Assembly: GCA_934120715.1 (NCBI GenBank)
Contig: CAKOUW010000002.1
Coordinates: forward strand, 78,564 to 142,563
Source of the DNA: an uncultured Bacilli bacterium
Lineage (GTDB): Bacteria > Bacillota_I > Bacilli_A > RF39 > UBA660
Direction: 5' to 3'
Length of the DNA: 64,000 bases
Shown here: positions 3,255 through 60,201 of the stretch, one piece after another
Numbering within the stretch: position 1 is the first letter of the stretch
Layout: each line of letters opens with the position of its first letter
The notes under the pieces: generated by a model
The model's database searches: none
Told to the model about the DNA's origin: nothing
What the model saw: only the letters and a program-made list of their open reading frames with translations
Program-made: the position numbers and the translations under genes

Positions 3255-4238
3255 ATGGAATGGAAAATTGGGGATTTACAAATTAAAAACCAGGTAGTGT
3301 TGGCTCCAATGGCTGGGATCTCTAATCCTGCTTATATGAAGATATTATCTGAGATGGGTTGTGGATTAGCAATTACTGAACTAATTAGTTCAGAAGCTAT
3401 AGTAAGAGGCAATAAAAAGACGTTTGAAATGCTTAATGGTATTGATACGGTTGATATGCCGGTTGGTGTTCAAATATTTGGCTCTGATCCTAGTGTGATG
3501 GCAAAAGCTGCTAAAATTATTACAGATCGTTATAATATTTCGTTAATAGATATTAATATGGGATGTCCTGTTCCTAAGGTTGCAGTTAGAGCTTCATCAG
3601 GTTCGGGATTACTTAGGTTTCCTGATCAAATATATAACATTGTTAGTTCTGTTGTTAAAGCGATTTCTATTCCTGTAACAGTAAAGATTAGAAGTGGTTG
3701 GGATAGTGAACATATTAATGCTGTTGAAGTTGCCAAAATTATAGAAAAAGCAGGGGCTAAGGCGATATTTGTTCATCCTAGAACTAGAAGCCAAGGTTAT
3801 TCTGGAAAAGCTGATTGGAGTATTATTAGTGAAGTAAAGAATGCTGTTTTAATTCCGGTTATTGGAAATGGTGATATAAAAACAGTAGAGGATGCTAAAA
3901 GAATGCTAGATGAAACTAAGTGTGATGCTATAATGATCGGTAGAGCTACAATGGGTAATCCTTGGATTATAAAAAACACTGTTAATTACTTAAATGGAGA
4001 TAGTTTAATTGTTCCTACGCCTGTTCAAAGAATAGATATGTGCTTACAGCATTTAAATTATTTATGTTCTTTTAGGGATGAACATTTGGCTTGTCTTGAG
4101 ATTAGAAATCATATAGCTTGGTATTTAAAAGGTATTAATGGTTCAAGTGATGTTAAAAAGAAAGTGTATAAAACTCATCAATTTTGTGATATAATTTCTA
4201 TATTAAATGAATTTAAGGAGGAAGTATTGAATGAATGA
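3255..4238 (+). CDS. dus: tRNA-dihydrouridine synthase (DusB-type)
   Basis: Dus family TIM-barrel signature ([10 protein letters not shown]...NMGCP...) and FMN-binding motifs. Confidence 0.9.
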
Positions 4239-4866
4239 TGGTTTTATAAAGCCCCTTTTTATACAAAGACTGGGTGCATTTATATTGGATAGTATGTTAA
4301 TTGCTTTACTTGTTTCTCTTATTGGTGGATTTTTTGTAGATCAAAAGTCTATTAATAAGATTCAAGAGGATATGGTACAAATACAAGAAAAGTATATTAA
4401 TAAAGATATTAGTACAAAAACGTATTTGGCTGAAAGTTTATCACTTTCATTTCAATCTGCTCAAAAGCAAGGGATTGTTACTTTAATTTCTATATTTTTA
4501 TCTATAATGTATTTCATTGTTTATCAATTTTATAATAAGGGACAAACTCTTGGTAAAAAGATATTTAAAATTAAGGTGGCTAAATATGGTTCTGGTGAGT
4601 TAACTATAAATAGTATGATATTTAGATCATTAATTATCAATTCTATTTTTGTTGATATGGTTATATTTGCTTTTGTTGCTATTTCTAATTTTAATATGTA
4701 TCGTTATGGTGGAATGGTATTTAGAGGTATTGATTACTTTGTGTCATTTACTAGTTTATTTATGATAATGTTTAGTAAGAGTGGAAGAGGTATTCACGAT
4801 TATATAGCTGGCACAATTGTTGTGAGAGCTGATGGAGTAAAGGAGAGAGAATTATGCGAGAGTTAA
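4231..4866 (+). CDS. RDD-family membrane protein
   Basis: Three TM segments and a C-terminal [16 protein letters not shown]-type motif. It overlaps the dus stop and the lysS start. Confidence 0.55.
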
Positions 4867-40626: not shown

Positions 40627-41064
40627 ATGGAAATATTAAATAAAAAGGCTTATCATGACTATTTTATTGAAAATATTTATGAAGCAGGAATAGTTTTGAT
40701 GGGCACAGAAATTAAATCAATTAGAAAAGGTAATTGCAATATTAAAGATTGCTATGGAATAATTAAAAATCATGAAGTATATTTACTTAATATGTATATT
40801 GGTCAATATAAAGAAGGAAATATATTTAATCATGATGAGACTAGAAATAGAAAACTGCTTTTACATAAAAAAGAGATAAAGAAGTTAGAACAAGAAATAG
40901 AGTTGAAAGGAAATACGTTGATACCTATAAGACTTTATTTAAAGAATAATCGTGTTAAAGTTTCTTTAGCTGTTTGCAAGGGAAAAAAGAATTATGATAA
41001 GAGGGAATCTATAAAAGAAAGAGACATCAGGAGAGACGTTTTAAAGAATTTAAAAAAGTACTAG
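40627..41064 (+). CDS. smpB: SsrA-binding protein
   Basis: SmpB family sequence ([13 protein letters not shown]). Confidence 0.93.
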
Positions 41065-44152: not shown

Positions 44153-44531
44153 GGGGCTGATTAGGTTTCGACGGGAATATTAGAGCGCAGATGGCAAGTC
44201 GATTGCTCACGTAATGAGCACAAAAAAATAAACGCAAATAAAGTTAAAAACGCAGTAGCTAATTTGTTTGGTGGAAACCAAGCAGTTGCTTTTGCCTAAT
44301 AATATAAGGCCTGCACTTTTTTCAATTTTTATCTAGGAAATTGGAAGAGGTTCATTTTTACTAGATTATAGTTATCTTTTGTCTTGAAGATAAACTGAAC
44401 TTAATAGACTAGTATATTGTTTTGGTCGTTAACTACTTGAATGATATATGAAATTAATTAGTTAACTAAACTTGTAGAGGTTTGCGTAGCTGTATTTTCG
44501 GACAGGAGTTCGATTCTCCTCAGCTCCACCA
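44153..44531 (+). ncRNA. ssrA: tmRNA (ssrA)
   Basis: The 5' end ggggctgattaggtttcgacggg and 3' end ggacaggagttcgattctcctcagctccacca (T-arm plus CCA) are present. An internal tag ORF gca aat aaa gtt ... gct ttt gcc taa taa encodes ANKVKNAVANLFGGNQAVAFA*. An extended -10 tgatataat lies at 44134-44142. Confidence 0.85.
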
Positions 44532-44621: not shown

Positions 44622-44669
44622 AATTTTGATATTTTGTCAAAATACCTAGGGGGTTAAAGATTTTTACAT
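44622..44669 (+). repeat. copy A of a ~45-bp repeated palindrome-containing element (TTTTGA-N7-TCAAAATACCTAGG...)
   Basis: Directly visible, and repeated at 45615-45659 at ~85% identity. It lies ~50 nt upstream of the NDT-like gene. Confidence 0.6.
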
Positions 44670-45265: not shown

Positions 45266-45614
45266 TAAGTATAGTTGTAGATTACTACGACACTCGCACC
45301 AGATTGATTGATACTCGAACTTTTAATTTGAGGATAATAAATATTAACTATAAATACCGTCTAGTTTTTTAATTATTTAAGAAAGTAAAGTAATTAATTA
45401 TACGATGATTTTGATTTACAAAATATAGAAAATAGTGTATCGAAAGAAGAAAAGTAAAATAAAAAAACGGTAGCGACTATCGGAATTTAAGCCTATGGAG
45501 AATGATACTCTATCTATGAAGTAGGAATGTTGATCGGCGACGACCAATGCGAATAAAAATTTAAAATTATTTTAATTTTTATTCTTTTGTTATGCAATAA
45601 AAAGCCTCAATGAT

Positions 45615-45659
45615 AATTTTGATGATTATGTCAAAATACCTAGGAGAGTTAAATGTTAT
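45615..45659 (+). repeat. copy B of the repeated element
   Basis: aattttgatgattatgtcaaaatacctaggagagttaaatg, ~80 nt upstream of the HD-gene ATG. Confidence 0.6.
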
Positions 45660-45740
45660 AGCAAAAAGAGAACAAAGAAAAAATAGTATAATTATTTTGG
45701 TGATTGTATGTATTTATATGATAAATTATTAGGCAATAAA

Positions 45741-46374
45741 ATGTTTTTAGACACTGTAAAAAAAAATAGAAAATATTAAGTTTATAACAGACGGTAAATG
45801 GGATTGGGATCATGGACTAGGGCATTACAAACGTGTAGCTGAATATGTAAAAACAATTTTATTACAATTAGGAGCTAACGAAAGAACAGTTGATTTAGGA
45901 ATGACCGCTACGCTTTTGCATGATATTGGTTTATCAAAAGGAGATAAAATCGATCATGCTGTAGAAAGTAGTAAAATATTTATTAATTTTATTGATAAAA
46001 GTGATATTACACATTATGAAGAAGATACTTTAAGGCAGGCTATTCTTGATCACTCTAAAGGAAATAATATTCAATCTTTAATAGGATTGAGTTTGGTCCT
46101 AGCCGACAAATTAGATGTAACCTATCATAGAACCAAAAATTCTAGTATTCAAGATAAAATGAATAAGGAAATTCAAAAGATTCAAAGCGTTGATATAAGT
46201 ATTACTGATAAAAATCTTATAGTACAATATACTACTGATGATAATTTTGATATTAATATTTTAAAAGATTGGCCAAAAGCAATTACTGTTCCATATAGAG
46301 CGTCAAAATATTTAAAGAAAAATTATAGATTTATAGTTAATAATATGCAAATTGATATTTTAAACTATTTGTAA
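45741..46374 (+). pseudogene. HD-domain phosphohydrolase interrupted by a frameshift at an A9 homopolymer (45758-45766)
   Basis: ATG 45741 reads MFLDTVKKN and then hits a stop. The +1 frame continues open as ...KWDWDHGLGHYKRVAEY...TATLLHDIG (H...HD motif) to 46374. With 8 As it would be a single ~210-aa HD protein. Confidence 0.55.
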
Positions 46375-46396: not shown

Positions 46397-47167
46397 TTGA
46401 AAAAAAGAATAGCATTACTAGCCGATATTCATGGTAATTTAGAAGCGTTAGAGTCAATATTGGAAAATATAAAAAAACAGGATATAGATGAAATAATATG
46501 TTTAGGAGATTCAATTGGTATTGGCCCTAATTCAAAGGAATGTATAGATTTATTAATCGATAATAATGTTAAATCCGTTTTAGGTAATTATGAAATATAT
46601 TTATTAAAAGGGACAAATTTCGACTCTTCTATTGTGGGAGAGGAAAAAGAACATTATAAATGGGTTAAAGATTCATTAACTGATAGAGAAATTACTTATA
46701 TAGAAAAGTGCCCGTTTTATTATCAAATAAATATAGAATATGAACATTTAAAATTTAGTAAAAAATATATTTTCTGTCACTATTTGATTAATAGTGAAAA
46801 TAGTATTTATCCCTTTGAAAAGAATCATCTAAAAAGAGACATTAATTTGTGGAAGAAGTATAATAATGATAATATTACTTATTTTATAGGTCATCTTCAT
46901 GAATCTTTTAATGTTAATGAGGTAGATGGTATATCTGGTGATTTTATAGAAGATGATGGAGCCCTAACTAATATTGAAGTTGTTGATAGTGCTGGATGTA
47001 CAAAAGACGAATACACTTCTTACATGATTTTAGAGATTTCAAAGAATATAAGTTATTATAGGAAAAAAATTAAATATGATAGAGGAAAGTTTGTTAATAA
47101 AGTATTGAATATTGAATTTCTGGATAAGCAAAATATACTTAAATATTTTTATGGCATAGAAAAATAA
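46397..47167 (+). CDS. calcineurin-like metallophosphoesterase
   Basis: LADIHGN...CLGDSIG...GNYE...GHLHE motifs. A TTG start follows RBS aagtagga. Confidence 0.75.
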   Translation: MKKRIALLADIHGNLEALESILENIKKQDIDEIICLGDSIGIGPNSKECIDLLIDNNVKSVLGNYEIYLLKGTNFDSSIVGEEKEHYKWVKDSLTDREITYIEKCPFYYQINIEYEHLKFSKKYIFCHYLINSENSIYPFEKNHLKRDINLWKKYNNDNITYFIGHLHESFNVNEVDGISGDFIEDDGALTNIEVVDSAGCTKDEYTSYMILEISKNISYYRKKIKYDRGKFVNKVLNIEFLDKQNILKYFYGIEK

Positions 47168-47330: not shown

Positions 47331-49199
47331 ATGATTGAAAGTTTGGGTTTTCCTATAATTGGTTTGCTTTTTTTAATTTTAGTATCAATCATTTTCTTGA
47401 AGAGAAAGAGGTATAAAACATTTGAAAATGATATTTTTACTGTTTTACTGTTTTTTACTTTGATTATGTCAGTACTTGGAATAGTATGTACTTTAACGAT
47501 GGCTAATCGAGAAAATATTCCAATTTTTAATGAGGTGTTATGTAGAATATATGTGTTTGGGATTATTGCGTGGATGTCATTGATATTAGCGTATTCGTGG
47601 AGTTTAGGGCGTAATTTGAAGTATGAAAAGCTTTCTCAAATATTTAAGGAACGTTATATAAGAGCGTTAGTTATTTTTACTATAGTTACTTATATTGTAT
47701 CTTTATTCTATGATTTAACTTTTACATCAGCATATAATGATTCGGTATATATTATTGGAGGAGAGGGCCAATTTGCTATATATAGCTTTGTTGTAATAAT
47801 GGTTGTTAGTACTTTGTATATATTATTGGTAAAGAAGAAAAATCTTCCTTTAACAAGACGATTACCATTATTTTTCTTTGTATTCTATTTATTATTAGTT
47901 TCTATTCTTCAAATAACTGTTTATAATTTTAATGATGTAACTTATCTTTATTGTTTGTGTGTTATTGCTATATACTTTTCTATAGAAAATCCTGATGTTC
48001 AATTAATAGAACGACTTAAAGAAACAAATAAAAATACGGAGTTAGCTCTTAAGAATAGGACTGATTTTTTATTAGAAATGTCTAATGAAATAAGGACACC
48101 TCTTAATTCAATTGTTGGATTCAGTCAATCAATTATAAATGAGAAAAATATTTCTGAAGAATCTTTTAAAAATGATATTGAATATATTAATGATTCTTCA
48201 AAAGGACTATTAAATACTATAAATAATATTCGAGAATTTTCAACTATGGATGCTATAGATAATGTTGTCAATGTGGAACCATTTTCAATTAGTGATATTG
48301 TTACTGATATAGAACAATATGTAAAATCAAAATTGTATAAAGATGTTCAATTTAATGTTGATATTGATAAAGGACTTCCTAAAGTTTTGATTGGTGATAG
48401 GGGAAAAATTTTAAAGATTTTAATAGGATTAATAGGTAATAGTATAAGGTTTACGCAATCAGGTGAAATTGAATTAAAAATTGCTGGTATTAGTAAACAA
48501 GATCATATTGATATGCATTTTACGGTTAATGATACTGGTGTTGGAATGAGAAAAAATGAGCTTGAATCATTGACTAATTATCTTGGTAAGCATGATGTTG
48601 AGAATGAAATATCTAATAATAGTGTTGGTATTGGACTACTTGTTATAAAGAACTTGGTTAAACTTTTAGATGGTGAGATAACTTTTACTAGTAACTATGG
48701 AATTGGTTCTACTTTTGATGTAATAATAAAATGTAGGATTTGTGAAGATAACAAGATTATAGAAGAAGTTTTAACTAAGAAGGATAATGTTAATTATATT
48801 GATTGCTCAAAATATAGTGTTTTACTAATAGATAATGGCGATATATCTTCACGAGCAAATTATAATCTACTTAAAAAATTTAAATTTAATATTGATACTT
48901 GTAAAAGTGGATTAGAAAGTATTGAGAAAATTAAATCAGGTTCTCATTATGATTTATTAATAATAGGTAATAATAGTTTTGAACTATCTGCTGTTGAAAC
49001 AATTGAAAAGATTAAGAAGTTAAACAATTATAAAATACCTAAAGTTTTAGTTGAAATATCAAATGATATTAAATATCAAAATAAATATTTAGATGATGGA
49101 TTTACTGATTTTTTATTAAATCCAATAGATGAATTAGAACTTATAAAGTTAATAAATAAATATTTTGATGATATTGTGGGTGGTGACAATAATGTTTAA
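47331..49199 (+). CDS. membrane sensor histidine-kinase-like / pseudo-receiver hybrid with H-box His replaced by Asn
   Basis: 6-7 N-terminal TMs. The HisKA-like box LLEMSNEIRTPLNSIVGF has Asn (codon 48084-48086) where the consensus S-H-E-L-RTPL has His. HATPase_c N/G1/G2 boxes are intact. The C-terminal REC-like domain lacks the phospho-Asp (IIGNN). Confidence 0.7.
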   Translation: MIESLGFPIIGLLFLILVSIIFLKRKRYKTFENDIFTVLLFFTLIMSVLGIVCTLTMANRENIPIFNEVLCRIYVFGIIAWMSLILAYSWSLGRNLKYEKLSQIFKERYIRALVIFTIVTYIVSLFYDLTFTSAYNDSVYIIGGEGQFAIYSFVVIMVVSTLYILLVKKKNLPLTRRLPLFFFVFYLLLVSILQITVYNFNDVTYLYCLCVIAIYFSIENPDVQLIERLKETNKNTELALKNRTDFLLEMSNEIRTPLNSIVGFSQSIINEKNISEESFKNDIEYINDSSKGLLNTINNIREFSTMDAIDNVVNVEPFSISDIVTDIEQYVKSKLYKDVQFNVDIDKGLPKVLIGDRGKILKILIGLIGNSIRFTQSGEIELKIAGISKQDHIDMHFTVNDTGVGMRKNELESLTNYLGKHDVENEISNNSVGIGLLVIKNLVKLLDGEITFTSNYGIGSTFDVIIKCRICEDNKIIEEVLTKKDNVNYIDCSKYSVLLIDNGDISSRANYNLLKKFKFNIDTCKSGLESIEKIKSGSHYDLLIIGNNSFELSAVETIEKIKKLNNYKIPKVLVEISNDIKYQNKYLDDGFTDFLLNPIDELELIKLINKYFDDIVGGDNNV

Positions 49200-51012
49200 T
49201 ACAATTATATTTTCAATAAGTAATTTATTGCTGGCAATATTGTTGTTAATCGTTTATATTTTTAAAGTAAAAGAAAAAAATATTAATAATATATTATATA
49301 ATTCATTATTAATTTGCTTGATTGTAATTTTGGTAACTGAAATTGTGTCAGTATATACAATTTATAATAATCAATTATTTCCATTATTGAATGAAGTGAT
49401 ATGTAGAATACGTGGTGTAGGTATAATTATATGGGCTATGTTAATATCCTTATATTTAATATCTTTAAGTACTAATCATAATTATGAAGAATTTAAAAAA
49501 GTGTTACATAAAAATTATTATATATTACCTATATATTTGTTAATTATAGTCTGTTTTTTCTTTTTTAAATATGACTATGTTATATTGAATGATACTGCAT
49601 ATTTAAAGGGATCTGCTAGTATATATATATTTATGTGTATTATTTTAATATCACTGTTCTGTATAATATTTATTCCAGATAGTATTTTTAGTAAGTACAG
49701 TAAAAAAATGATAGCTTTGTTTTTATTATTAGAATTAATAGTAATTTTAATGTTATCTTATACTCTTCCATATGTATATTTTGCTACAACTGTTTTAACA
49801 TTAAATACTTATATCTTGTATTTTGTAACTGAAAATCCTGATTTATATGCAATAAAACAGCTAGAAAAAGCAAATGATATTATAGAAAATCTTAATACTA
49901 GTAAGATGGACTTTTTTAATAACATTACTAATGAAATAAGATCTTCAGTTCAATCAATAGTAAATTTAAGTGATATTTTGTTAGAGAGTCCTTATGATAG
50001 AGAAAAGATTTTACCAGATGTAAATAGTATATTTTATACAGGAAATAATTTAAATGCAATTATTACGAATGTTTTAGATATATCGAAAATTGATTATGAT
50101 TTGGATTGTTTAAATGAAGAAGAATATGATTTAAAAAGTTTAATTTTAGATTTGATGGTTATGTTCGAAGAAATGAATAATAAAAATATTAATTTGAATA
50201 TTATTTGTGATGAAAATGTACCTAGAAGATATATTGGTGATAGAAATAAAATTTATAAAATTTTATTAAATTTATTGGATAATTCAATTAAATATACTTA
50301 TACTGGGAGAGTTTCATTAAAGATAGAATGCTTAGTAAAAGATAAGAATTGTTTATTAAAATTTTGTGTATCTGATACTGGTGTTGGTTTAAAAGAAAAT
50401 GAATATAATAAAGTTTTAAATGAATTGTCTGATTTAGATAAACATACGTATAATGGTAAAGAATATGTTGGACCTGGTCTTATTATTGTAAAAAAGTTTG
50501 TTGATATTATGAATGGAAAAATTACTTTTACAAGTGACTATGGTGCTGGGACAAAATTTTATGTGGAATTGCCACAAAAAATTGTTGATAATACTGTTAT
50601 TGGAACTATAAATATGGAAAATGTGATAGATTATAAAAATTATTCTTCTTTGAAAGTATTAATAGTTGATAATGGCAATTTGGATTTAAAGTTAATGAAA
50701 ACATTTTTAAATCCTTATAAGTTTAGCGTTGATACTTCGTTAAGTGTTAAAGATTTCATTTATAAGATAAAACAAGGTAATAGATATGCTCTTATATTTA
50801 TTGATCAAATGATGTTAAAAGAGGATGATATAGAATTAATAGAAGTATTGGAAAAATTGTCTGATATTTTTGTAATTCCTCCAATAATAGTTTTAACATC
50901 TGATTATTTTATGTTGCAGCATGATAAGAAAAAATTTATATGTGATTCTTTGATGAAGCCAATTAATAATATTAAATTGGATGAAATTATAACTAAGTAT
51001 CTTGATAAATAA
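49192..51012 (+). CDS. paralogous membrane histidine-kinase-like / receiver hybrid, also with H-box His replaced by Asn
   Basis: Same architecture. Its H-box NNITNEIRSSVQSI has Asn at 49930-49932. HATPase_c is intact, and the C-terminal REC retains the conserved D (LIFIDQMM), T/S and KP. ATG 49192 follows ggtggtga and overlaps the upstream stop. Confidence 0.7.
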   Translation: MFNTIIFSISNLLLAILLLIVYIFKVKEKNINNILYNSLLICLIVILVTEIVSVYTIYNNQLFPLLNEVICRIRGVGIIIWAMLISLYLISLSTNHNYEEFKKVLHKNYYILPIYLLIIVCFFFFKYDYVILNDTAYLKGSASIYIFMCIILISLFCIIFIPDSIFSKYSKKMIALFLLLELIVILMLSYTLPYVYFATTVLTLNTYILYFVTENPDLYAIKQLEKANDIIENLNTSKMDFFNNITNEIRSSVQSIVNLSDILLESPYDREKILPDVNSIFYTGNNLNAIITNVLDISKIDYDLDCLNEEEYDLKSLILDLMVMFEEMNNKNINLNIICDENVPRRYIGDRNKIYKILLNLLDNSIKYTYTGRVSLKIECLVKDKNCLLKFCVSDTGVGLKENEYNKVLNELSDLDKHTYNGKEYVGPGLIIVKKFVDIMNGKITFTSDYGAGTKFYVELPQKIVDNTVIGTINMENVIDYKNYSSLKVLIVDNGNLDLKLMKTFLNPYKFSVDTSLSVKDFIYKIKQGNRYALIFIDQMMLKEDDIELIEVLEKLSDIFVIPPIIVLTSDYFMLQHDKKKFICDSLMKPINNIKLDEIITKYLDK

Positions 51013-51106: not shown

Positions 51107-51712
51107 ATGTATCAGTTGTCTATATTACCATATTCTTTTCAAGAATTAGAACCTTTTATTGATACGCATACTATGGGGCTACATTATCATAAACATGAAA
51201 TGGCATATTTAAATAATTTAAATAATTTGTTAAAGAAGTATAACTATAATTATCGTTATAGTCTTAATGATCTTGTTTATCATATTAATGAATTTAATGA
51301 CGATGATAAGCCTAATATTTTATTTAATCTTGGTGGTGTATTAAATCATGAACTGTATTGGAAGAGTATGAATAAAAATAGTAATTTACCTAAGGGGAAA
51401 TTAAAAAATAAGATAGATAGCCAATATGGTGATTTTAATAATTTTTGGAATGAGTTTAAGAAAATGGCTTTATCTTTAAAGGGCTCCGGTTATACATTTT
51501 TAGTATTAAGAAAAGATGGTAATTTGGAGATAGTTAATTTTTATAATCAGGATATTCCTTTATTGTATGGGTATATTCCATTATTTAATATTGATTTGTG
51601 GGAACATGCATATTATTTAAATTATGAAAATGACAGATCTAAATATATTGATAATTTTAGAGATATTGTTGATTTTACTAATGCTAGTTTTTTATATGAT
51701 AATATGATTTAA
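51107..51712 (+). CDS. sodA: Fe/Mn-family superoxide dismutase (divergent)
   Basis: The four metal ligands are conserved (H in LHYHKH, H in NHELYW, D and H in DLWEHAYY). ATG 51107 follows ggaggt. Confidence 0.8.
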   Translation: MYQLSILPYSFQELEPFIDTHTMGLHYHKHEMAYLNNLNNLLKKYNYNYRYSLNDLVYHINEFNDDDKPNILFNLGGVLNHELYWKSMNKNSNLPKGKLKNKIDSQYGDFNNFWNEFKKMALSLKGSGYTFLVLRKDGNLEIVNFYNQDIPLLYGYIPLFNIDLWEHAYYLNYENDRSKYIDNFRDIVDFTNASFLYDNMI

Positions 51713-51803
51713 TTATATATTTTAATTATTTTATTTGTACTTCACATTTTTGTGGGGTTTTTTAAATGTAAATTATGTTATAATTATATGGAGGTGATTT
51801 TAG

Positions 51804-53036
51804 GTGGATAAAATTTTGATGAATGCATTAAAAAAAGAGAGTAAGAGACAAGAAGAGAATATTGAACTTATTGCTTCAGAAAATTATGTTTCTAAAGATA
51901 TTTTAAAGTTACAGGGAAGTATTCTTACTAATAAATATGCTGAGGGGTATCCTGATAATAGATATTATGGTGGATGCCAATATATAGATATTTTTGAAAA
52001 GAAAGCAATAGAATATGTAACCAAGTTATTTAATTGTAAATTTGCTAATGTTCAACCACATTCTGGTAGTAGTGCTAATATGGCTGTTTATAGAGCTTTA
52101 ATTAATCATGGTGATAAAGTTATGGGAATGAATTTATCACATGGAGGACATTTAACTCATGGACATCCTATTAATTTTAGTGGTCTTGACTATGAGGTTG
52201 TTTCCTACAGTGTTAATGAGAAAACTGGATTAATTGATTACGATGAACTAGAAAAATTGGCTTTGTCTGAAAAGCCTAAAATGATTATAGCTGGATGTAG
52301 TGCTTATTCTAGAATAATAGACTTTAAAAAATTTAGAGAAATAGCTGATAAATGTGGAGCTTATTTAATGGTTGATATGGCCCATATTGCTGGCTTAGTG
52401 GCAGCTGGATTACATCCTAGTCCTTTTCCATATGCTGATGTTGTTACTTCTACTACGCACAAGACTTTGAGAGGCCCTCGTGGTGGAATTATTTTAACTA
52501 ATAGTCCAGAATTAATTAAAAAGATAAATAAGGTGGTTTTTCCTGGTATTCAGGGTGGCCCTTTAATGCATGTTATAGCTGCTAAAGCACAATGTTTTTA
52601 TGAGGCTTTACAGGATGATTTTATTGTTTATCAAAAACAGATTATTAAAAATATGAAAGCTTTATCTGATTGTTTAATGAAAAAAGGTGTGAAAGTAGTA
52701 TCAGATGGTACTGATAATCATTTAATTTTAGTTGATGTTAAGACTTCTTTTGGATTAACTGGTAAGGTTGCTGAAAAAGTATTAGATGATATTAATATTA
52801 CTTGTAATAAAAACACGATTCCATATGATAGTGAATCACCATTTATAACTAGTGGTATTAGAATTGGAAGTGCAGCTATGACGACTAGGGGATTAAAAGA
52901 AGATGAATTTAATTTGATCGGAGAAATTATTTATAAAAGTTTAACTAATATTGATAACTTAAAAATACAAAAAGAATGTAGGGAAGAAGTTCTTGCTTTA
53001 ACTAAAAAATTCCCAATATATAAAAGAGTAAAATAA
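51804..53036 (+). CDS. glyA: serine hydroxymethyltransferase
   Basis: IELIASEN and the PLP-Lys region [17 protein letters not shown] 51804 follows ggaggtga; an alternative ATG lies at 51819. Confidence 0.93.
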
Positions 53037-56348: not shown

Positions 56349-57182
56349 ATGACAATTACTGGAACAGATCTTTTATCATTTTTGAGAAAATTAGTGGATA
56401 TTTCACTTGTTTGGTTTATATTTTATTATATTTTAAAAAACATTAAAAATAATGTTAAGCTTTCATTACTGTTTAAAGGAGTTGCTTTTGTAATTATCCT
56501 TAAATTGGTTAGTGACTGGCTAGGATTTACTACTATTGGTGTATTATTGGAATATATTATTCAATGGGGACCTATAGCGCTTATTGTTATTTTCCAACCT
56601 GAGATTAGAAATATTTTGGAACAGTTAGGTAGAAGTCAACTATTAGGACGACATAAGGTTTTGACTGTTGATGAAAGAGAACGAATGGTCTATGAAATTA
56701 TTAATGCAGTTGATTATTTGAGAAAAGAAAGAATAGGGGCATTAATAGTATTAGAACGTGATATTAGTCTTGGAAATTATATTGATAAGGCAAAGAAATT
56801 ATATGCTGATTTATCTAGTGATTTATTGATTGCTATATTTTATGAAGGTAATCCGCTTCATGATGGTGGAGTTATAATACAGGGTGATAGAATTACCTGT
56901 GCTGGAGCTGTTTTTCCAACTAGTAATAGTTCAAAGATCAATAGACGTTTGGGAACAAGACATAGGGCTGCTCTTGGATTGGCTGAAGAGACAGATGCTA
57001 TTTGTATTGTTGTTTCTGAAGAAACCGGTCGTATTTCAGTTGCTCTAAAGGGGGAGTTATTATATAACTTAACATTAGATGATACTAGAATGTTATTGAT
57101 TGATGAATTGAGACCTAAACAAGATATAGATTTAGATGATGAGGTGGATGAGGAAGAAATATATGAAGAAAGTGTTAAGTAA
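56349..57182 (+). CDS. cdaA: diadenylate cyclase CdaA (DisA_N/DAC domain)
   Basis: Three N-terminal TMs, DAC motifs DGA...RHRAA and GTRHRAALG. Confidence 0.93.
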   Translation: MTITGTDLLSFLRKLVDISLVWFIFYYILKNIKNNVKLSLLFKGVAFVIILKLVSDWLGFTTIGVLLEYIIQWGPIALIVIFQPEIRNILEQLGRSQLLGRHKVLTVDERERMVYEIINAVDYLRKERIGALIVLERDISLGNYIDKAKKLYADLSSDLLIAIFYEGNPLHDGGVIIQGDRITCAGAVFPTSNSSKINRRLGTRHRAALGLAEETDAICIVVSEETGRISVALKGELLYNLTLDDTRMLLIDELRPKQDIDLDDEVDEEEIYEESVK

Positions 57183-59688: not shown

Positions 59689-60201
59689 ATGGCAAAAAAA
59701 AATAAAAGTTTAAATTATGGTAATACAGAATTTAGTTTACAATTTAAGAATATTATTATAGTTAGTATAATTGTTTTGGTTTCTTTAGGATTGTTTTATT
59801 TATTAACAATTGCTCTTTTGGGTAAGAAGCCTACGGTTGATACATCTGGTGGTAGTAGTGATACAACTATTCAAAATCAAGAGATTTTATTAGGTTCTAG
59901 TTTTAATATTAGTTCTGATAGATATATTGTTTTATATTATGCTTCAGATGATCAAGATAGTTCTTCTGATATTAAGTCTTTAGCTACTTCTTACAGGGCT
60001 AAGGATGATGCTTTAAGTCTTTATACTGTTGATTTAAGCGATGCTTTAAATAAAGCTTTTGTAACTACTGATGAGTCTAATCCTGATGCTAGTAATGCTA
60101 GTGAAATGAGAGTTAAGAATCCAACACTTATTGTATTTGAAGATGGAAAAATTAACGAGTATATAGAGGGATTTGATTCTATTAAAGATTATTTAAGTTA
60201 A
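59689..60201 (+). CDS. hypothetical membrane-anchored protein
   Basis: ORF with one TM and an S/D-rich region. Confidence 0.4.
   Translation: MAKKNKSLNYGNTEFSLQFKNIIIVSIIVLVSLGLFYLLTIALLGKKPTVDTSGGSSDTTIQNQEILLGSSFNISSDRYIVLYYASDDQDSSSDIKSLATSYRAKDDALSLYTVDLSDALNKAFVTTDESNPDASNASEMRVKNPTLIVFEDGKINEYIEGFDSIKDYLS

Follow-up and report, generated by a model that had tools for sequence, protein, structure and literature searches.

Phase-variable contingency loci with homopolymeric tracts are known from Campylobacter, Haemophilus, Neisseria, and Mycoplasma. In such loci, the length of the tract sets the ON or OFF state of the gene and is polymorphic between strains, and the locus described here resembles them in both respects. 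However, its tract does not exceed the length expected from codon usage, no single background combines the two states, the gene does not belong to the surface or restriction-modification genes, and the other null alleles recorded for it are irreversible.

Closer counterparts are the poly(A) frameshift pseudogenes of Buchnera and Blochmannia, in which a one-base indel in a run of 8-10 A splits a conserved gene, as in the present case (PMC3017870, PMC5574713, PMC1088944). These pseudogenes are due to replication slippage, a small share of their transcripts possibly being corrected by the polymerase. In contrast to the Buchnera and Blochmannia alleles, which are fixed in endosymbionts, the allele studied here is polymorphic in a gut commensal species; furthermore, its lesion of one additional A requires a rare −1 or +2 transcriptional correction, unlike the endosymbiont cases. 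Nine A at the junction of two frames, as in this locus, are also found in dnaX of Thermus thermophilus and in IS transposase fusions (PMC1088944). In the dnaX and IS systems, the run and the layout are conserved and both products are used, whereas the homologues of the present gene are single ORFs with a run ranging from fewer than five to eight A. It has been reported that A9 allows some RNA-polymerase slippage and that genes with frameshift mutations can be restored in this way (Baranov et al. 2005, PMC1088944), and that, genome-wide, slippage at A/T runs is mostly a one-base insertion, deletions being rare (Traverse & Ochman 2017, PMC5574713).

The split HD gene and its predicted product

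The locus was identified in a 64-kb stretch of DNA (referred to as the window) with a G+C content of 29.5%, representing a Firmicute-like genome that uses genetic code 11. The window holds ORFs of rpoB/rpoC size, a tuf-sized ORF, and smpB together with the tmRNA gene. Across the whole window, the 38 ORFs of at least 200 codons end in TAG (19), TAA (17), or TGA (2), which is an odd stop-codon usage for a genome of 29.5% G+C.

The lesion consists of an A9 homopolymer on the forward strand (45758..45766), bordered by T on either side and exceeding by one A the A8 tract found in the intact alleles of conspecific strains. Frame 0, read from the ATG at 45741, yields MFLDTVKKNRKY and ends at the TAA at 45777-45779. 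The +1 frame, closed by a TAA at 45757-45759, is open from 45760 to the TAA at 46372-46374 and gives the product KKIENIKFITDGKWDWDHGLGHYKRV...LLHDIG..., and deletion of one A from A9 fuses both frames. The tract at the frame junction and the HD domain in the +1 frame had been described in an initial annotation and were borne out, the former by the sequence and the latter by a PF01966 match above the cut-off in the repaired protein; the termination of frame 0 was also correctly recognized, but it occurs four codons past the KK of MFLDTVKK instead of directly after it. In the intact form, the tract corresponds to the codons Val(GTA)-Lys(AAA)-Lys(AAA)-Ile(ATA), giving A8, and AAA accounts for 68% of the Lys codons in the window. 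The length of the tract is no greater than codon usage gives, and its non-trivial part is the one extra A. The A8 run is the longest homopolymer in the HD gene. Seven other A/T runs of 8-9 nt are present in the window, all of them inside intact ORFs, and a second split gene was not found within the 64 kb. A suspected split at 56349/57136 was rejected, as it represents the normal cdaA-cdaR overlap.

Another A9 run (59694-59702) covers codons 2-5 of an intact 170-aa ORF (59689-60201) without a Pfam match, and represents a second slippage-prone site, which is in frame at present.

More than 100 homologues with a length of 221-222 aa begin with MYLYDKLLGNKMFLDTVKK, and the real start of the gene is therefore the ATG at 45708, located 11 codons upstream of, and in the same frame as, the ATG at 45741 from which the gene had initially been read. 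The sequence GGTGA at 45698-45702, 5 nt upstream of ATG 45708, is a plausible Shine-Dalgarno sequence. One A fewer indeed results in an intact gene, as proposed at the outset, but its product comprises 221 aa, not approximately 210 aa. Accordingly positioned, the 5' remnant in frame 0 (45708..45779, forward strand) encodes 23 codons, MYLYDKLLGNKMFLDTVKKNRKY, up to the premature TAA at 45777-45779, and the gene body in the +1 frame (45760..46374, forward strand) covers residues 18-221 of the intact protein, with TAA 46372-46374 as its stop. A residual ORF of 157 aa starting from Met65 (45901..46374, forward strand) is annotated by gene callers both in the A9 strains and in strains carrying a nonsense codon at Trp33 (W33*, described below). 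The suggestion that this Met might be the genuine start in relatives does not hold, since these begin 64 residues upstream and the segment K30-H39, with the pattern KWDW.HGLGH, is invariant. The ATG at 45901 is preceded by AGGA at a distance of only ~1 nt, and the invariant H35/H39 segment is missing from the residual ORF. Alignments of 13 and 33 homologues showed K30-W31-D32-W33, H35-G36-L37-G38-H39, R42-V43, and other residues upstream of Met65 to be invariant, and the Met65 product would miss these core residues.

The intact gene encodes a predicted HD-domain phosphohydrolase. Residues 27-125 of the repaired 210-aa protein matched the Pfam profile HD (PF01966) with 30.7 bits against a cut-off of 22 (E = 4e-7), and the homologues carry a precomputed PF01966 assignment. 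In 33 homologues, H35, H39, H71-D72, H83, D114-H115, D133, and D136 were invariant. The profile match, the conserved H...HD...D metal-ligand residues, and the helical HD fold place the protein in the PF01966 superfamily. The AF2 model of a 99%-identical intact protein (mean pLDDT 90, pTM 0.89) features a helical HD domain at the N-terminus, which includes a small beta hairpin, and an alpha/beta domain at the C-terminus. Foldseek comparison with the PDB resulted in HD and HD-like matches (E = 3e-5 to 1e-2, TM ~0.4-0.55). Structural likeness was found to the C-terminal HD-like half of PPX/GppA (3rf0, 6pbz, 1u6z) and to the small uncharacterised HD hydrolases 2pq7, 3b57, 2pjq, and YpgQ (5dqw). 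The helical HD fold and the H...HD...H...D residues are common to these structures and the protein studied here, but the similarity is moderate (TM ~0.5, identity 10-21%), and the latter possesses an extra C-terminal alpha/beta domain compared with the solved HD hydrolases. The family profile gave no match to PDB sequences at E ≤ 0.01. The sole match among PHROGs was an uncharacterised family, and relatives of the HD protein were not found in viral contigs. PADLOC gave only a sub-threshold similarity to Cas3-HD (E = 0.0065) and thus no indication that the gene belongs to a defence system.

Alleles within the species and across related species

As the initial annotation had advised, the tract length was compared across strains, and both A8 and A9 were found within the species. 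The truncated 157-aa ORF was detected in exact form on at least five contigs from other assemblies, and A9 was present in four out of the four contigs read. In addition to the window, A9 is carried by L004/L093, L005/L095, and L094; A8 with identical flanks is carried by L001-L003 and L006-L011. Among the A9 contigs, ERZ28615073 scaffold_15 and ERR7738247 are 100% identical to the window across 20.5 kb and 6.1 kb, respectively, and SRR29134237, originating from a different project, features four SNPs in 6.8 kb, all of them located ~5 kb downstream. Intact A8 contigs with identical flanks were obtained from ERZ15609724, ERZ28614336, ERR7738604, SRR24884193, and SRR29134123, and the intact A8 alleles of the contigs compared showed 99% protein identity and 99.55-99.78% DNA identity to the window. 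Without exception, A9 occurs together with a SNP haplotype of its own (45788C, 45859T, 46015T, 46714G, and 47664G). Furthermore, the accession series that gave A9 also gave A8 on other haplotypes (ERZ28614336, ERR7738604, and SRR29134123), the A8 and A9 haplotypes being identical within 22 nt of the tract. A repaired (A8) version of the A9 haplotype was absent from a collection of ~15 billion proteins, and a scan of JGI metagenomes with a gapped DNA pattern for other tract lengths resulted in zero matches. All alleles represent the consensus of metagenome assemblies, which may mask mixtures of A8 and A9 inside a sample, and some of the A9 contigs may be ENA and Logan assemblies of one sample; the number of independent samples is at least two, its exact value being uncertain.

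The four SNPs of SRR29134237 (L094) lie within 820 bp (window positions 51142-51959), in the gene for superoxide dismutase and the one that follows it, and this cluster may be a small recombination tract.

A second null allele of independent origin, in which TGG is changed to TGA at Trp33 (window positions 45805-45807) and A8 is kept, was found in conspecific strains of a sister lineage (L006-L009). It is represented by four assemblies (ERZ15609848, ERZ15610569, ERR10754024, and ERZ27286971) and resides on a haplotype distinct from that of A9; this second haplotype also exists with an intact gene. Two of the contigs with the in-frame TGA (L008 and L009) are nevertheless recorded with a full-length product of 221 aa. 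Since the locus does not translate to the query under table 11, these records presumably originate from code-4 gene calling. Code 4 (TGA = Trp) was rejected for the organism, as 96 of the 96 Trp codons in its long ORFs are TGG. TGA, which terminates two out of the 38 long ORFs with the next gene following directly after each, is a genuine but rare stop in the source organism.

For the comparison across species, 80 MAGs of related, uncultured Bacilli from the gut ('Tenericutes' or Clostridium sp. CAG:524-like) were used, each serving as a species representative. The HD gene is a single ORF in ~70 of these representatives and disrupted in ~10 of them. Copies with TAA or TAG nonsense codons (L074, L075, L078/L080, and L090) were found alongside copies with frameshifts at other sites of the gene (L070, L081, and L084) and heavily decayed ones (L086 and L091), L086 being a complete-chromosome MAG in which assembly indel errors are possible. 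In L043 (2990-3030), an A7 at the same tract causes a frameshift; its sisters L026 and L029 (~3040) possess A8 with identical flanks. The term 'recurrent loss' is a descriptive label for these MAGs and implies no excess over a baseline pseudogene rate.

The contigs L078 and L080, which stem from two different species-representative MAGs, are of equal length (9527 bp), show the same match coordinates, and carry the same TAA allele, and probably represent one organism deposited twice.

Purifying selection acts on intact copies, as indicated by dN/dS values between 0.08 and 0.28 in 10 out of the 11 pairs with an estimate, the remaining near-identical pair having a value of 0.47. The low dN/dS and the invariant K30-H39 segment indicate that the gene is functional when intact. 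Within the species, four missense SNPs, one nonsense SNP, and one synonymous SNP were counted in the HD gene (5:1), compared to 7:7 in the two downstream genes; this nonsynonymous excess is suggestive of relaxed constraint but is not significant (p = 0.32). According to these data, the accessory gene is functional yet dispensable and undergoes sporadic inactivation, the A8 run being its most mutable site.

Genomic surroundings of the HD gene

The gene following the HD gene encodes a calcineurin-like metallophosphoesterase (46397..47167, forward strand; Pfam Metallophos 1.6e-11). It is intact, begins 22 nt past the HD stop, and is probably co-transcribed with the HD gene in the source species. 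The metallophosphoesterase adjoins the HD gene only in the source species and in L014. A conserved operon was rejected, because none of the three neighbours (the 143-aa ORF, the metallophosphoesterase, and the histidine kinase) keeps its place beside the HD gene in other species, L014 with its phosphoesterase being the one exception. Two hybrid histidine kinases (47331-49199 and 49165-51012), each featuring HisKA, HATPase_c, and a receiver domain, are tandem paralogues located directly downstream of the HD and metallophosphoesterase genes, and internal DNA repeats reflect their duplication.

Upstream of the HD gene, a motif of the form TGTCAAAATACCTAGG(N2-3)GTTAAA(T) was found on the forward strand (45629..45653); in L021, L027, L028, L034, and L042, it likewise precedes the HD start by 70-95 nt. 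A second copy, TGTCAAAATACCTAGG(N2-3)GTTAAA, precedes the 143-aa ORF (44635-44660, forward strand), and the motif is probably a shared promoter or operator. The tmRNA gene (ssrA; 44153-44531, forward strand), encoding the tag peptide ANKVKNAVANLFGGNQAVAFA, is located 1.2 kb upstream of the HD gene, smpB being found at 40627-41064. The tmRNA was the sole Rfam match between 40 and 50 kb of the window, and a direct repeat of the tmRNA 3' end marking an island boundary was not found.

A noncoding element on the forward strand (45273-45383), situated ~330 nt upstream of the HD start, shows 84-88% identity to segments in the loci of ~12 other species, with which synteny is not shared. Its 5' part resembles, in degenerate form, the 3' end of a tRNA-Leu(TAG), and a hairpin of the type CTCGAAC...GTTCGAG comes next. 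Its tRNA-Leu(TAG) counterpart is intact upstream of the HD gene in L045 and L049, and in L021, L028, L031, L034, and L044 the element begins 20-35 nt past the HD stop. The element may represent a scar left at the att site of an integrative element, or else a terminator module that is shared. In L013, an 85%-identical homologue lies between a Mob_Pre relaxase gene and a gene encoding a WDGH domain (506-1747 and 4054-4455), and the HD family therefore also rides mobilisable elements. The neighbourhoods of the HD gene vary between species, and this variation, the tRNA-Leu remnant, the nearby tmRNA, and the relaxase of L013 point to a location of the gene on accessory or mobile DNA. Gene loss is common in such DNA.

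Origin of the A9 allele and its meaning for the HD family

We consider it very likely that the A9 tract represents a genuine mutation, in which replication slippage added one A and made the gene of one clonal lineage a pseudogene of recent date, or an allele that leaks weakly at best. Slipped-strand mispairing at A8 during DNA replication would have produced a heritable A9. Translation from ATG 45708 now halts after 23 codons, leaving the remaining 204 codons, including those for the metal-binding His and Asp residues of the HD domain, out of frame. The predicted outcome is a recent null or strongly reduced-function allele of an accessory HD-domain phosphohydrolase, with A9 presumably fixed in one clonal lineage and intact A8 kept by other lineages of this uncultured low-GC gut Bacilli species. 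The event would thus be one case of the sporadic, repeated loss of the HD gene across the clade. Pseudogenisation, assembly error, and phase variation had been listed unranked in the initial annotation; the first of them gained support, the second is disfavoured, and the third is disfavoured less firmly.

If the tract were a sequencing or assembly error, the organism would really possess A8 and an intact gene. Homopolymers are classic sites of indel errors, all data are metagenome-assembled consensus sequences, and some A9 contigs may share read sets; even so, such an error is very improbable, because A9 recurs in assemblies from different pipelines and projects, including the strain with four SNPs, and is confined to a private haplotype, because A8 appears on other haplotypes of the same accession series despite the 22 nt of identical flanks, and because none of the other 8-9-nt A/T runs of the window disturbs a reading frame and no other gene is split. 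An A8/A9 difference within the species and an independent A8>A7 change in L043, as a phase-variable site would show, could also be expected of a reversible contingency switch, by which the HD gene is turned on (A8) or off (A9/A7) under fluctuating selection. Runs of 8-9 A are hypermutable (PMC1088944), and the repeated loss of the gene could reflect selection for the off state. Phase variation is unlikely, however, given that the A9 haplotype has not been recorded with A8 and that A9 was kept while the lineage diverged. Moreover, the tract is not conserved, being shorter than A5 in 31 of the 80 species, and its A8 form is just GTA-AAA-AAA-ATA; most of the other inactivations are irreversible, being nonsense codons or frameshifts elsewhere; and a cytoplasmic HD hydrolase is atypical as a contingency gene. 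Of the two features characterizing contingency loci, a frame-changing tract polymorphism between strains was observed (A8/A9, as well as A8/A7 in L026/L029 versus L043), but not the occurrence of both states on one background, since four out of four A9 contigs, which represent few samples and consensus assemblies, share one haplotype.

Tolerated or programmed recoding, by contrast, would keep the A9 gene functional, either through RNA-polymerase slippage giving mRNA with A8 or A11, or through +1 ribosomal slippage on AAA-AAA-A. In many bacteria, transcriptional slippage reaches an appreciable level once a run comprises nine A, such runs can rescue frameshift mutations (PMC1088944), and tRNA-Lys can presumably re-pair in the +1 frame on A9. 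Nevertheless, we regard recoding as very improbable, because the orthologues are single ORFs and the two-ORF layout is not conserved; the longest A run at the tract position comprises fewer than five A in 31 of the 80 species, five in 12, six in 16, seven in 10, and eight in 11. The allele requires −1 or +2, unlike the one-base insertion prevailing in A/T-run slippage (PMC5574713), and any rescue is therefore expected to be small. Furthermore, in frame 0 the run is followed by AAU, a common codon used 926 times in the ORFs of the window, the stop follows four codons downstream, an upstream Shine-Dalgarno-like stimulator is absent, and RNA folding around the tract showed no structure above the background of shuffled sequences (z = +0.2 to +1.5). 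Of the hallmarks of prfB-type +1 frameshifting, neither a conserved two-frame layout nor a slow or stop A-site codon with a stimulator was found; of those of dnaX/IS-type slippage, a run of at least 8-9 A/T is present (A9), but the run and the split layout are not conserved. Since a tract of nine A permits a certain amount of polymerase slippage (PMC1088944), the allele may retain some leakiness instead of being null, and a small residual expression through slippage of RNA polymerase or ribosome would be conceivable. A further reading assumes that selection on the HD gene in the gut fluctuates or is negative and that leaky knock-down alleles instead of deletions are gained repeatedly (A8>A9, TGG>TGA, and, in another species, A8>A7), the A8 tract serving as a reversible switch of dosage for an uncharacterised phosphohydrolase on mobile or accessory DNA. 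In this reading, slippage of the polymerase would partly correct A9, and tRNA-Trp can read UGA, but we judge the reading as a whole to be very unlikely.

A replication-slippage pseudogene, as favoured here, is a commonplace event, although the gene family affected had not been characterised before. The proper annotation of the locus is that of a frameshifted pseudogene of a 221-aa HD-domain protein starting from 45708, and not of a 157-aa 'hypothetical protein' at Met 45901. As the two TGA contigs recorded with a full-length product illustrate, the HD family is handled poorly by gene callers. For the gut Bacilli, the results indicate that a well-conserved, uncharacterised family of HD phosphohydrolases is dispensable and has repeatedly been lost, and this repeated loss represents a modest clue to a conditional function of the family.
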